64,000 nucleotides of DNA from an uncultured virus (IMG/VR IMGVR_UViG_3300034110_000988). Lineage: Duplodnaviria; Heunggongvirae; Uroviricota; Caudoviricetes. The translations under genes and the position numbers were made by a program. The notes under the pieces were generated by a model. That model saw nothing but the letters and a program-made list of their open reading frames with translations. It searched no databases and was not told where the DNA came from. Numbering within the stretch: the stretch's first letter is position 1; each line of letters starts with the position of its first letter. The stretch lies in the IMG/VR virus record IMGVR_UViG_3300034110_000988; one strand, written 5' to 3'. Below are positions 7,142 through 62,083 of this stretch, one piece after another.

Positions 7142-7261
7142 TATAAACTCCTGTTTTTTTTTTATATTATTATACTTTTATTCGAAAATGCAAATAAAAG
7201 AGTGCTTTTTCTTTCTTGTTATGATACAATTCTATTACTAATTTTCATAAGGTGTTTTCGT

Positions 7262-8230
7262 ATGTCTCTTTATCTTATCAAGTCATTTAAAAGTGCATTC
7301 AATGATGCAGCTTCTAAGGCTGGTTTACAAAATGATATCCGTGACGGCCTTAATAAAAAAATTGTAAAATTTGTAGATTTTAAAACCTTATTCAGTAAAC
7401 AAATCATTAGCACTGTCTATGTTTCTTATGATTTAAGATTTTTCGTTGATCAACAAGGTTATGACGAATTATCAAAAGCCATTTTTGAAGAATTCTCCAT
7501 TGAAATTGAGCCGATCAATCGAACGATTGATATTGATTGCATGATTATTAATGATTATCATTCTTTCAAAGACATTATGGCACAAGTAACAAGTATAACA
7601 TCTAGTCCAGAAGGCAAAGAAAATAGCAAACAGTTTTATGAGCAACAACGACTCATAAGAAAAGAAAAAGAAACAATAAAAAATCTTTTGTATTCGTCAC
7701 TTCCCAAATCTATTTCTTCAAGAAAATTAATTACAATAGATTTCGAATATGACCAGAATAAAAATCATCTGATATTTGAATGTGGTGTTACCAAATATTT
7801 TAATGGTGAGTTGCAGTATGAACACTATTTAATTGAAGAAAACTATAAAAATAAAAAAGACTATGAATTACAATTACAATTTAAATTTGGAAAATCTGTA
7901 GTTGTATCTATGGAAAATCTTCTTGTTATACTCAATGATGTATTAACAGAGACTGATTGTCTAATTGGTCATTGTGTGTTTAGTGAATATTTAGTTCTTA
8001 AGCATCATGGTTTGGACATCTTTGAATATAAACAGTTGAAATGTATGGACACTCAAAAAATCTTTAATTCTCATTTCATAAATCATTCGCAAAACTCACA
8101 AATATCGTTACTTAACCTTCTTTCGTTATTCGATATAACACCGGAACATTTACATAATGCAGGTAATGATGCGGCTTATACAATGATGGCTTTTTTGAAA
8201 ATGGTTGAGTCTATTAATATCCAATATTAA
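7262..8230 (+). CDS. DEDDh 3'-5' exonuclease, paralogue of 1092..2099
   Basis: ITIDFEYDQNKN, IGHC, DTQ, HNAGNDAAY. Confidence 0.8.
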   Translation: MSLYLIKSFKSAFNDAASKAGLQNDIRDGLNKKIVKFVDFKTLFSKQIISTVYVSYDLRFFVDQQGYDELSKAIFEEFSIEIEPINRTIDIDCMIINDYHSFKDIMAQVTSITSSPEGKENSKQFYEQQRLIRKEKETIKNLLYSSLPKSISSRKLITIDFEYDQNKNHLIFECGVTKYFNGELQYEHYLIEENYKNKKDYELQLQFKFGKSVVVSMENLLVILNDVLTETDCLIGHCVFSEYLVLKHHGLDIFEYKQLKCMDTQKIFNSHFINHSQNSQISLLNLLSLFDITPEHLHNAGNDAAYTMMAFLKMVESINIQY

Positions 8231-8307
8231 CAATGACAATTATCTATTTATTAAATTGATTTTTTTCTCAATATGTGATATAATTGTCCCTTAATAAAGG
8301 AAAAATT

Positions 8308-8724
8308 ATGACCGACATTTTAAAGCGTTTAGCTGATTTAAAGCAACAAGAAGCCAATTTAAAAAAAGAAGCAAAAAAAATCACAAAAGAATTTGAAAGT
8401 TATATTGCTGACAAAAAAATCCCACTAGGTGAGCGGTGGTTCTTATTTGTTGAAGCACCTGATAATTTAAGTAACCACGAAAAATATTTCATTAAAGCTC
8501 AGTCTAAAGGCTTACAACATATTAAAGACAACTGGTTTGATGCACCAGAAGTTTATGGTCGTGGCAAAAGAATTAATACCAAAGAACTTTTTGAAGATAT
8601 TTTTGAAGATGAATCCTTAGCTTATGACCCTGCCGATTATGATCCATCTGAAATTGAATTATACAAAGATGCTATGGAAGACATCTTAAATCAAAATTGT
8701 GCTTCTTTCTGTTTTGACTGGTAA
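8308..8724 (+). CDS. hypothetical protein, paralogue of 61691..62083
   Basis: shared PLxERW and ExILxxNCxSFxFD motifs. Confidence 0.75.
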   Translation: MTDILKRLADLKQQEANLKKEAKKITKEFESYIADKKIPLGERWFLFVEAPDNLSNHEKYFIKAQSKGLQHIKDNWFDAPEVYGRGKRINTKELFEDIFEDESLAYDPADYDPSEIELYKDAMEDILNQNCASFCFDW

Positions 8725-14473: not shown

Positions 14474-14947
14474 ATGCGTAAATCTATTATCAGTATGTTT
14501 GCTGGTGTTGCAATCGCTTGTCTTTCAATGGTCGCAGTTGCGTCAGCTACTGAAGTGATTGGATCTGTCAGCACAACTTTCAATATGGTTGGCCCCAACG
14601 ACAAAATTGTTCTGTCGGCTTTCGATGATCCCGATGTCAAAGGTGTCTCTTGCTACCTGTCGAGTGCGAAAACAGGTGGTCTTTCTGGTGCTGTCGGTCT
14701 AGCCACTGATGCTTCGGATGCTTCGGTGTCGTGTGTTAAGACTGGGCCAATCACGTTTGATGACTCGCTTAAAAGTGGTAAGGAAGCTTTCAGTGAACGA
14801 CGTTCACTTGTTTTCAAGAAACTCCATGTGGTTCGTTTTATTGACCGCGAACGAAAAATGCTTATTTACATGACGTACAGCGATCACCTTGTGGACGGAA
14901 GTCCTAAAAATTCAATCTCTGCTGTCAGTTATGGCTCAACTCAGTAA
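14474..14947 (+). CDS. creA: CreA family secreted protein
   Basis: signal peptide; [37 protein letters not shown]. Confidence 0.9.
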
Positions 14948-24517: not shown

Positions 24518-24597
24518 GCGATGTGGTGGAGAGGTATCCACGTTGGTTTCAGCCAATTCCCTATGGAACAAGAGTTCGAGTCTCTTCCATCGCACCA
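24518..24597 (+). tRNA. aberrant tRNA-Leu-like gene (6-nt anticodon loop TTTCAG)
   Basis: GCGATG/CATCGC-ACCA acceptor, GTGG/CCAC D-stem, long variable arm, AAGAG-TTCGAGT-CTCTT T-arm. Confidence 0.7.
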
Positions 24598-36488: not shown

Positions 36489-36899
36489 ATGAATTCTAGC
36501 AAACCGTATCTTGTCAGTGCTGTCTATGAGTGGATTGTGGATAATGATTGCACACCACATGTGCTTGTAAAAGCTGATTATACTGGTTGTGATGTCCCAC
36601 AAGAGTTTGCTAAAGATGGTCAGATTGTTCTTAACGTGGCTATGATGGCGGTCAAATCGTTTGTGATGGATAAAGAAGCTCTTAGTTTCTCAGCTCGCTT
36701 CAAAGGTGTTGAACAATCTGTGTATGTTCCAATGGGTGCTGTTCTGGGTATTTTTGCACGCGAAAACGGACAAGGGATGATGTTTGAAGCCGACCCAGAA
36801 CCTGTTAAGCCAGAAGTTAAATCAGATACCGAAGTTAAAACTAATTCAGAAACGCCGTCAAAAAGTAATGTAAAACCTTTTTTGAAAGTTGTTAAGTGA
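36489..36899 (+). CDS. sspB: ClpXP adaptor SspB
   Basis: PYL..VYEWIVDNDCTPH, DGQIVLN, F.ARF, ARENGQGM, C-terminal XB motif LKVVK. Confidence 0.93.
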   Translation: MNSSKPYLVSAVYEWIVDNDCTPHVLVKADYTGCDVPQEFAKDGQIVLNVAMMAVKSFVMDKEALSFSARFKGVEQSVYVPMGAVLGIFARENGQGMMFEADPEPVKPEVKSDTEVKTNSETPSKSNVKPFLKVVK

Positions 36900-40965: not shown

Positions 40966-41041
40966 GTCCTTTGTAGCTCAGTTGGTAGAGCGGGCGGTAG
41001 AAGCCGCCGCGTCATAGGTTCGATTCCTGTCGGGGACACCA
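40966..41041 (+). tRNA. aberrant tRNA-Phe-like gene (6-nt loop TAGAAG)
   Basis: canonical D/T arms; GGCGG-TAGAAG-CCGCC; one extra nt in 5' acceptor strand. Confidence 0.75.
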
Positions 41042-54429: not shown

Positions 54430-54723
54430 ATGACCGAAGATACAGAAGAAAAAGACGAAATTTCCCAACAAGCTCTTAATGCAGCAGATACTGTCATTAA
54501 CGAAATTCGTCAACACCACCAACATGATTACACATCAAAACGCTTGGAAATCGCTGATTTCTTTGAGAATGATTTGTGGTGCGGTAATTGGGATTCAACA
54601 TTGGATTTTGATAACATGCCTACACTTCGTTTCATTCAAGAAGATGAGTATGATCAACACATGGATGACGACCAGCCAGAATATGATTTGTATTCTGAAG
54701 GTCATTACATCATCATTGGCTAA
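54430..54723 (+). CDS. acidic hypothetical protein
   Basis: AGGAG RBS; terminator follows. Confidence 0.7.
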   Translation: MTEDTEEKDEISQQALNAADTVINEIRQHHQHDYTSKRLEIADFFENDLWCGNWDSTLDFDNMPTLRFIQEDEYDQHMDDDQPEYDLYSEGHYIIIG

Positions 54724-54861
54724 TAAGTATTTAAGCATTGATGTCTAATCCCGTATCGAAAGACGCGGGATTTTTGTTTGTGAATAACTAATAATTCTGT
54801 TGACATTTTTCATAAATATTGATACAGTTGAGACAAGCTTTGATAATATAAGGAGGAAGCT

Positions 54862-56384
54862 ATGTCACTGTTAAACGTAATCTAACCAAAAATTTCGAAT
54901 TCAATCAACACGAACATCAAATCTATCAGACATGGATTGATAATAATTCTTTTCTACCGCAAAACAATTCAAAAACATTCTTTATGCCTATGCCACCGCC
55001 TAATATTACAGGTAAATTGCATATCGGCCATGCTTTATTCTTATCCATACAAGACGCATTAACTCGTTATTATCGAAAATCTGGTTATGAAACCTTATGG
55101 TTGCCGGGAACCGATCATGCTGGTATTGCTACACATTCTAAAATCATTGAATCTTTCAATAATGAACCGTTTTCAGAGATTGAATATGCGATTCGTGGAC
55201 AAGAAATAAAACAAATCAACCAGTCTACGATCATCCAACAAATACAACGAACAGGGGCCAGTTGCGATTGGAGCCGTTTAAACTATACAATGGATGACAA
55301 TTTTAAACAGGCTGCTATTCATGCTTTAAAACAATTGAATAATGATGGTTTACTCTATCAAAAAGATGGTCAATGGTATATTGCTATGCAAGATATGGCA
55401 AAAGAATTACTGGCCGATATCCAATCTGGTTCGTTTATTATTAACGATATCACACAACTCAATAAACTTATTCCAATGTTAGAACATAGTGAAGATTGGT
55501 GCATATCAAGACAAATTAAATGGGGACTTTCTTTACCTATTTACATTGATAATAACAACAACCATCACATCTTTAATAACGATGAAGAAGCCTCTCTTCA
55601 TTTACCAGATGGTTTTTTGAAAGAGACATCTACGTTTGATACGTGGTTTACATCATCGCTTTGGCCGTTTGCGACACTAGGCTGGCCGAATAATACTGAT
55701 GACTATGCTAGATTTTATCCAGCTCAAATCATTGAAACAGGAGCTGACATTTTGTTCTTTTGGTGTGCTCGCATGTTGATGATGGGGAAAAAATTGACGG
55801 GTAACTATCCTTTCAAAGAAATCTACCTTCATGGCATTTGTAGAGACAGCGAAGGTAAGAAGATGTCTAAGTCATTAGGCAACGGTATTGACCCATTGGA
55901 TATCATTGATAGATATGGTACCGATACTTTACGATTTGCCTTATTGTCTAAGGCGACCAACAAAGATATGAAAATGGCTGATAATGACTTTTTGAATGCG
56001 TCCAAATTTATCAATAAAATTTGGCAATCTTTTAGGTTTATTGATATGCATATCAAAGCAAATGAAACACCTTGTGACTTAAACAATCAGGGTTCTTTTA
56101 CAGAACACTTGAATACGTTGAAAATACAATTTCATGAAGCTATGAATAAGCGTGAGTTATTAAATATTACGCGAGACATTCAGTATTCTTACAAGCATCA
56201 TTTTTGTGATGAGTGGATTGAACAGAATAAAAAAGCTATCTTCGCTGGCGATCATGATATTCTTCAACATGGTTTGTTTATTTTAATGAGTTATATGGAA
56301 TTGCTTCATTGTTTCATTCCATTCATTACTACTTACATTACAGAGCATTTTGAACAAGGAGATATTATCCAGAATCAATATTGA
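54862..56384 (+). CDS. valS: minimal valyl-tRNA synthetase; N-terminus split by a -1 frameshift (annotated ORF 54984..56384)
   Basis: PPPNITGKLHIGH, WLPGTDHAGIAT, DWCISRQ..WG, DTWF.S.LWPF, TG.DILFFW.ARM, KMSKS; homologous N-terminus continues upstream of 54984 without an in-frame ATG. Confidence 0.9.
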
Positions 56385-61556: not shown

Positions 61557-61690
61557 GCCCCTTCACCTCAAATAATACTTCATGTTACATCAAAAAGAAT
61601 ATTAATCAAATCTTGATATTTCTTTTATATTTTGTTGTTTAAATAATGATTTTTTGCTATAATATCTATCTACATTTAATGGAGAATTAC

Positions 61691-62083
61691 ATGTCTATTC
61701 ATCAACAGTTACAAGCAATTAAAGATAAAATTGATGCTTTAAAACCAGAGTTTGTAATCTATATTAAAGATCAATCAGTTCCATTGATTGAGCGATGGGA
61801 TGCTTTTGTTCTGGCTGATAGTCGTTTGAAAGAGCATAATAACTACGGCCCCGGCTTTGCATCATTAGATCGTGAAATTGTTGGGCATGACCGAGTTATC
61901 CATATGGTTCGTGAATCTACTAAAGACACTTGTGTTTTGGTGGATGATATCATGAATAAGCAGCTTAATCTTGATGAGATTCGTAGTGATTATGATGCCA
62001 ATCTATTAGAAAAAGTAGATATTGATGCGTTGAAGGAAGAAATTCTTGCTGCCAATTGTGGTTCGTTTACTTTTGATTTCTAA
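61691..62083 (+). CDS. hypothetical protein, paralogue of 8308
   Basis: PLIERW, EEILAANCGSFTFDF. Confidence 0.75.
   Translation: MSIHQQLQAIKDKIDALKPEFVIYIKDQSVPLIERWDAFVLADSRLKEHNNYGPGFASLDREIVGHDRVIHMVRESTKDTCVLVDDIMNKQLNLDEIRSDYDANLLEKVDIDALKEEILAANCGSFTFDF

Follow-up and report, generated by a model that had tools for sequence, protein, structure and literature searches.

A valine-free valyl-tRNA synthetase gene with a conserved split reading frame in a huge-phage-like element: a candidate for valine-sensing −1 frameshifting

How is a valyl-tRNA synthetase (ValRS) gene translated if the start codon behind its ribosome binding site lies in another reading frame? This question is raised by a valS-like gene of an uncultured virus (IMG/VR record IMGVR_UViG_3300034110_000988), of which a stretch of 64,000 nucleotides (nt), here called the window, was analyzed. 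The features of the valS locus all lie on the plus strand. A Shine-Dalgarno sequence (SD) AGGAGG (54851..54856) is located 5 nt upstream of ATG 54862. This start codon opens a short open reading frame (ORF; 54862..54885) in the zero frame, referred to as the mini-ORF, which reads ATG TCA CTG TTA AAC GTA ATC TAA (M-S-L-L-N-V-I-stop) and ends after 7 codons at the stop codon 54883-54885. The ValRS frame is shifted by −1 relative to the mini-ORF, which is the +1 frame relative to ValRS. It is open from 54852, reads GGSYVTVKRNLTKNFEFNQHEHQIYQTWIDNNSFLPQNNSKTFFMPMPPPNITGKLHIGH / ...VTVKRNLTKNFEFNQHEHQIYQTWIDNNSFLPQNNSKTFFMPMPPPNITGKLHIGH... and runs to the stop codon at 56382-84, with ATG 54984 as its earliest ATG, GTG or TTG. 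The original prediction for this locus had named the SD, the start codon, the stop after 7 codons and the lack of an in-frame start before 54984, and all of these were confirmed by direct reading.

The first in-frame ATG (54984..54986), which is the start picked by gene callers, is located directly before the PPPNITG motif and is not preceded by an SD. The region upstream of it had been taken as the ValRS N-terminus, and this assignment held: it aligns to the ValRS of T. thermophilus (1GAX) from residue 13 onward, so that a start at 54984 would cost the protein its conserved N-terminus. Six residues upstream of this position (F11, E17, Y21, W24, F30 and P32) are invariant in the alignment (A1), and the first strand of the Rossmann fold would be lost together with such conserved residues. 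Initiation at 54984 was therefore rejected; the position appears to be too late as the start of a working ValRS. The same start was chosen widely in public data, since in 69 of the 120 best database relatives the annotated start is the internal methionine that corresponds to ATG 54984. The gene callers truncate these 69 entries, and the family is thus mis-annotated.

For the comparison with relatives, 55 distinct loci were used, which came out of a scan of all fetched loci and include the window and a locus from a cultured bacterial isolate (L116). The pattern V-[GK]-[RS], read in the ValRS frame, served to select the rows, so the informative counts are those of features that accompany it. At all 55 loci, a block of the form G-T-N-(GG|AA)-A-(C|A)-G-T-(A|C) was found a few codons upstream of the conserved L-T-K-x-F; in the window this conserved 10-nt block, the putative recoding site, is GTTAAACGTA (54870..54879). 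An ATG in the +1 frame is present at 55 of the 55 loci, and one of them (L041) has a TTG in a position better suited to the SD. An SD of the GGAGG type precedes the out-of-frame start by 5-9 nt in most of the 54 tabulated loci, with a weaker purine-rich stretch in a few. The mini-ORF has the same form throughout (start codon, 0-2 codons, L/W/S, D/N/E, V, 0-7 codons, stop; 55/55). No in-frame ATG, GTG or TTG occurs before the methionine of PMPPP at 32 of the 55 loci, and at 9 loci in-frame start codons are found only within the conserved N-terminal region. One locus (L040) ends at a contig edge inside the block.

A tree of 70 rows places every block-bearing row in a single clade of 52 rows, which has a support of 98 in the Shimodaira-Hasegawa-like approximate likelihood ratio test (SH-aLRT) and inside which the arrangement was never lost. 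Short ValRS genes without the block (L073, L079/80, L085/86 and L088) begin at an ordinary ATG and fall outside this clade. Contigs of relatives with 95-97% identity from three other runs show no insertion or deletion across 54835-54901, which answers the concern that an indel at 54862-54885 might have produced the split; run X1, from which the window probably derives, was not counted as independent of it. Further contigs in one of the three runs match 54851-54885 only, and the leader is well kept at the nucleotide level. The original prediction had also envisaged that relatives would keep both the split and the pair AAC-GTN. The split frames (55/55) and the valine codon are indeed invariant, but AAC itself varies (G_GAC, A_AAC and G_GAA). 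Nine other class I aminoacyl-tRNA synthetase genes in five related phage records (2 IleRS, 1 LeuRS, 2 MetRS and 4 CysRS) all begin at an in-frame ATG, and the idea that the same device serves other synthetases was dropped for the genes examined. The split arrangement is, with high probability, a real and deeply conserved recoding signal.

The constraint inside the block was analyzed in 54 of the 55 loci, without L116. Positions 0, 1, 5, 7 and 8 are invariant (54/54). Positions 3 and 4 are GG in 31 and AA in 23 loci and never mixed; the switch between the two requires at least two changes on the tree, with no intermediate seen. Position 2 is T in 45, G in 6 and C in 3 loci and never A, which at this place would create a stop codon in the mini-ORF. 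Position 9 is A in 40 and C in 14 loci, corresponding to the valine codons GTA and GTC. At four-fold sites of the invariant PPPNITG/HIGH region, only 0.1-0.3 bits were found, so synonymous sites have reached saturation within this set. In the ValRS frame, positions 5 and 8 are third codon positions (GGA/AAA and CGT); their invariance is hence held by the mini-ORF frame, in which they are the second bases of the D/N/E and valine codons.

Read in the mini-ORF frame, the block consists of a slip-prone codon with its 5′ neighbour (G_GAC, A_AAC or G_GAA), followed by the valine codon GTA or GTC, and this holds at 55 of the 55 loci. The base 5′ of the P-site codon is always identical to the first base of that codon (55/55), and by this pairing rule the P-site codon would be able to re-pair in the −1 frame at every locus. 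Between the block and PPPN, differences at ValRS codon positions 1, 2 and 3 amount to 246, 203 and 497, as counted over pairs that are not independent of each other. This region shows the coding pattern of the ValRS frame, which is consistent with a trans-frame product.

The signal had initially been related to the slippery heptamer of equine arteritis virus (EAV), GUUAAAC, which the window's G_TTA_AAC happens to match. This part of the claim did not survive: the heptamer is absent in 32 of the 55 relatives, which carry GTTGGAC, GTGGGAC or GTTGGAA. These sequences are unable to slip in tandem, and the conserved signal is accordingly the single P-site codon with its 5′ neighbour. A downstream stimulatory hairpin or pseudoknot is not conserved either. 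The window's 151 nt fold no better than shuffled sequences (z +1.38), and the 90 nt after the block give a median z of −1.02 over the 55 loci (window, −0.2). RNAalifold predicted 0 pairs for the 24 GC-richer rows. A hairpin drawn by hand through the F-D and E-E codons of several members was 59.8% paired compared to 54.9% in shuffles, with no more covariation than a slid control.

The comparative evidence tips the balance, by a modest degree, towards an expression of valS by a valine-sensing programmed −1 frameshift through a slip in the P site. According to this model, ribosomes would initiate at ATG 54862 and translate until AAC (54874-76) occupies the P site, which would place GTA (54877-79), the only valine codon met on the message, in the A site. 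With plentiful charged Val-tRNA(Val), GTA would be read, translation would terminate at TAA two codons further on and no ValRS would be made. Under a shortage of charged tRNA-Val, the A site would remain empty and the peptidyl-tRNA(Asn) could re-pair one base back on A_AA (AAA, 54873-75). CGT (Arg, 54876-78) would then enter the A site, and a ValRS of 507 residues, M-S-L-L-N-R-N-L-T-K..., would be produced. Such vacant-A-site slippage is described, in the part of the source covered, as a slip of one tRNA in the P site that is independent of downstream stimulators (PMC7026636). The ValRS frame after the shift (54876..56384; 502 codons and a stop) contains no valine codon, so the synthesis of the enzyme would not depend on the charged Val-tRNA that is missing.

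This P-site slip is the best fit to the out-of-frame start, the GG/AA covariation, the invariant valine codon, the early stop, the missing stimulator and the valine-free product. The claim of a −1 shift at a valine codon that senses Val-tRNA was in agreement with all of the comparative evidence (split, slip codon and valine codon at 55/55 loci, no conserved structure, a valine-free enzyme); the site and direction of the slip and its dependence on Val-tRNA are what we infer from this evidence. A response to the level of the gene's own product is suggested by the cognate codon together with the valine-free ORF. Furthermore, the absence of valine from the product speaks against a translation of the GTN located upstream of the slip point.

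The enzyme itself was characterized by domain and structure comparisons. It matches PF00133 (tRNA-synt_1) with an E-value of 1.5e-94 and Anticodon_1 with 1.2e-5 in Pfam, and the motifs of the class I catalytic core are present, with HIGH at 55020-55031 and KMSKS at 55860-55874. The best solved relative is 1GAX (E 2.1e-87), compared to 4.7e-33 for the best IleRS; judged by these matches, the predicted enzyme is closest to ValRS rather than to IleRS, LeuRS or MetRS. By sequence similarity, it is predicted to charge tRNA-Val with valine; PPPN and the core motifs are kept. Query residues 17-167 align to 1GAX residues 13-169 and query residues 168-492 to 356-690. With the segments 170-355 and 691-862 left unmatched, the protein lacks both the CP1 editing domain and the 170 residues at the C-terminus. 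Compared to cellular ValRS, the protein shares the catalytic Rossmann core, HIGH, KMSKS and part of the anticodon-binding domain. Cellular enzymes contain 38-75 valines, whereas the phage protein has about 500 amino acids (aa), 0-10 valines and no CP1 editing domain.

After the block, 0 of 502 codons in the ValRS frame are valine codons, while GTN occurs 26 and 24 times in the other two frames. The 54 mechanically called ORFs of at least 150 aa in the window have a median valine content of 6.6%, the lowest value after that of the ValRS being 1.7%. In the tree set, 23 of 51 block-bearing rows are free of valine and the others contain 1-10 valines, compared to 38-75 in the long cellular ValRS of the same set. 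Among the best 120 protein-database representatives, 70 have no valine, 104 contain 2 or fewer and none exceeds 10, although some of these counts are inflated by mis-called N-termini that take in the VTVKR stretch. Even the canonical PPPNVTG motif appears as PPPNITG in the short ValRS family. The finding that the synthetase lacks both valine and the editing domain is robust and stands independently.

A related observation was made for methionine. The MetRS frame of a 543-kb related phage (L110; G003:C1:396500-400500, minus strand) comprises 508 codons with a single methionine, the start, and a second MetRS (L115) contains 13. The avoidance of the cognate residue may thus reach other phage synthetases, as the first of these frames would suggest.

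Several observations weigh against the valine-sensing slip. The outgroups with an ordinary start also lack valine (0 in L073, L079/80 and L085; 7 in 742 in L088). The valine-free trait consequently arose before the frameshift and has no need of it. At block positions 0-1, the invariant G-T forms a valine codon in the ValRS frame (GTT, GTG or GTC) that simple P-site slippage does not account for, and the re-pairing of G_GAC in the −1 frame is only moderate (G:C, G.U, then a mismatch). At 10 of the 55 loci, the downstream region has a z below −2, and a hairpin may serve some lineages. Direct initiation in the ValRS frame could occur at 6 of the 55 loci with GTG at block position 0, and in the Stenotrophomonas phage RAS14 at an ATG at +9 that overlaps the mini-ORF stop. 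Seven of the 55 loci have in-frame start codons at least 60 nt upstream in long open frames.

An alternative that we regard as unlikely is a constitutive −1 frameshift, in which a fixed, low yield of ValRS is set and something other than sensing preserves the valine codon. Such a shift agrees with the conserved split frames as well as sensing does, and programmed frameshifts with a fixed ratio are common according to the part of the review consulted (PMC5009743). A stronger slippery site or a stimulator would be expected in this case, but none is conserved. Moreover, a constitutive shift leaves both the cognate valine codon in the A site (55/55) and the valine avoidance of the enzyme unaccounted for.

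Much less credit can be given to an expression without any frameshift, by non-canonical initiation or by termination-reinitiation at the block GTN or a leucine codon, with the mini-ORF as a coupling or regulatory leader. The six loci with GTG would be compatible with it, as would RAS14, whose record annotates the gene from the overlapping ATG, and the mini-ORF stop overlaps a leucine codon of the ValRS frame in every case. At 49 of the 55 loci, however, the block codon is GTT or GTC, which is no known start codon; nor are CTA and TTA. The SD is positioned for the ATG and lies 10-16 nt from GTN, and on the tree GTT and GTG replace one another at least 4 times, as though the difference were neutral. 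The invariant A at position 5, the invariant GT at positions 7-8 and the GG/AA covariation are not accounted for by initiation within the block.

A similarly poor chance is assigned to a different decoding event that involves tRNA-Val, namely a two-base translocation at GU(A) with the junction ...N-V-N-L-T-K, a backward hop of the peptidyl-tRNA(Val) from GUA to the GUN located 7 nt upstream with the junction ...N-V-K-R-N (peptide MSLLNVKRNLTK), or decoding by a special phage tRNA. This would give a role to the two invariant valine codons, which are spaced 7 nt apart in different frames with a free wobble base each, and a shift of −7 equals −1 modulo 3. In addition, two tRNA-like genes with 6-nt anticodon loops are found in the window. 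The product of such an event would nevertheless contain valine, which conflicts with the valine-free design; GUA is not followed by a slow codon that could set off a hop, and the GG/AA covariation is again unexplained. A short anticodon loop was found in 0 of 159 tRNAs detected with ARAGORN in the fetched tRNA clusters of three related phages.

The two tRNA-like genes are located at 24518-24597 (TTTCAG) and 40966-41041 (TAGAAG), and ARAGORN assigns them two-base anticodons; the second reaches 30.9 bits with the Rfam tRNA model. A doublet-decoding tRNA was rejected as a candidate, having no counterpart among the 159 tRNAs called in the clusters fetched from the three phages. One related phage (G002) encodes a tRNA-Val(AAC) (L197 6188-6263), an anticodon that is unusual for bacteria and their phages. 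A natural initiator tRNA with a valine anticodon was considered for it (compare the engineered i-tRNA-AAC in the part of a preprint that was consulted) and rejected, as its end is paired G1-C72 and not initiator-like. An operator in which GAC or AAC of the block mimics the anticodon for ValRS was likewise rejected, because the 5 GAA variants do not preserve it.

An assembly error, a recent mutation or a pseudogene, for which nothing speaks beyond the split frame seen in a single sequence, is refuted by the same split at 55 distinct loci from independent assemblies and practically negligible in view of the indel-free contigs from the three other runs, the intact HIGH and KMSKS, the coding pattern in the −1 frame and the nine intact synthetase genes of related records. 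The remaining explanations can be told apart by the peptide at the junction, since each rival predicts its own; tandem and P-site slippage share one.

The valine-sensing P-site slip could be extended to include the second valine codon. The block might then act as a two-sided sensor of tRNA-Val charging, with GUA in the A site and, after the slip, GUN in the E site, where uncharged tRNA-Val would bind and lock the new frame. We consider this extension improbable, and the binding of uncharged tRNA-Val to GUN in the E site is pure speculation. If true, the two-sided sensor together with a valine-free, editing-free ValRS would constitute a self-starting rescue module, which would restore Val-tRNA in huge phages once valine charging has collapsed, be it through a host defence or because the phage itself shuts off the host.

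Upstream of the SD, a promoter-like site (54800..54828) consists of TTGACA, a spacer of 17 nt and a TG-extended TACAGT and matches the consensus in 10 of 12 positions. The motif predicted at 54800 is thus present and no other pair in the region matches better, but this is no more than agreement with a consensus, as the 11 promoter-like sites of the region are about as many as the 10.1 expected from shuffles. A terminator-like hairpin, AATCCCG ... CGGGATT with a T-run (54747..54775), follows the upstream ORF that ends at 54723. It was read directly from the sequence and missed by the automated scan, since its loop exceeds the length allowed. Neither a T-box nor another leader was detected with Rfam at gathering thresholds, and the only matches in the whole window were 12 tRNAs.

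With regard to its origin, the element is huge-phage-like, not a proven phage. No match to near-identical DNA was found in the phage collection. The window contains 12 tRNA genes, a Pfam match was obtained for 12 of 74 ORFs and a PHROG match for 2 of 35, and no second synthetase gene is located within the 64 kb. Relatives of the ValRS are encoded on IMG/VR contigs of up to 578 kb, several of them 240-578 kb in length, on the 320-kb Stenotrophomonas phages CM1 and RAS14 and on many metagenome contigs. Among the IMG/VR records searched, direct terminal repeats are present in three, and CheckV estimates a completeness of 100% for four. The related phages carry 57-71 tRNA genes, their own tRNA-Val among them. 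In L116, a frameshifted short ValRS is found on a 581-kb contig of a cultured Sphingomonas sp. isolate, with a normal ValRS of 962 aa on another contig; this isolate is a possible laboratory system and a lead to the host.

The nearest ValRS relatives, L022 (92% identity) and L023 (65%), are located on contigs of 1.5-1.9 Mb. Together with P0001, P0009, P0039 and P0114, they belong to contigs of 1.07-1.9 Mb, well above known phage sizes, which may be giant phages, other elements, small cellular genomes or chimeric assemblies. In a 578-kb phage (G004), two adjacent tRNAs with a CTA anticodon (L195 6200-6356), amber suppressors that ARAGORN labels Pyl, were observed; the pair hints at a reassignment of TAG in this phage. 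The window further contains paired paralogues of a DEDDh exonuclease C-domain protein (1086-2099 and 7202-8230) and of DUF7020 (8284-8724 and 61646-62083), as well as an SspB-like (36489-36899) and a CreA-like gene (14474-14947). The rest of the region consists of ORFs of unknown type.

Frameshifting at hungry codons has been known for about thirty years from constructs. The valS gene would be a natural, deeply conserved candidate for it, with a slow codon that is cognate to the enzyme made. If this is true, about 10 nt would suffice as a sensor of tRNA charging, without an RNA structure or a protein factor. The valine-free synthetase suggests a second design rule, according to which a rescue enzyme is independent of what it restores. 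No published description of a frameshifted, editing-less or valine-free phage ValRS was found in a search that left most subscription journals outside, and an earlier report is possible. The Atkins 2016 review describes no synthetase case in the part covered and leaves the natural use of hungry codons as an open possibility (PMC5009743).

Compared to known systems, the closest mechanical likeness is to the −1 shift at hungry codons, as in the constructs of Gallant and Lindsley and, under limitation of aminoacyl-tRNA, in dnaX and HIV-1 gag-pol, which share the slip-prone P-site codon, a limitable A-site codon and the dispensable stimulator according to the part of PMC7026636 consulted. Known examples come from laboratory constructs or from sites of normally tandem slippage at which this route is secondary, whereas in valS the slip is proposed to be the sole route to the main product, takes place 3-5 codons after initiation and involves a hungry codon cognate to the enzyme. 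Canonical −1 programmed frameshifting relies on X XXY YYZ and a pseudoknot or hairpin. Apart from the fortuitous EAV match in the window, the family departs from this scheme, with G_TTG_GAC, G_TGG_GAC or G_TTG_GAA at the 32 loci without the heptamer and no conserved structure downstream. The gene prfB of release factor 2 (RF2), as commonly described and as treated in the part of PMC5009743 covered, has the same early-ending ORF in the zero frame; its own product decodes the shift-site codon, and a shortage of this product raises synthesis. It differs by a +1 shift at a stop codon with an internal SD 3 nt upstream, as opposed to a −1 shift at a sense codon by way of tRNA charging in valS. T-box leaders, the operator mimicry of thrS and leader-peptide attenuation follow the same logic, as they tie the synthesis of a synthetase to the charging of its tRNA. 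In valS, no terminator/antiterminator pair is involved and the decision would be taken in the reading frame itself. The valS device would therefore combine the logic of prfB with the mechanics of hungry-codon slippage and the purpose of T-box and thrS regulation.

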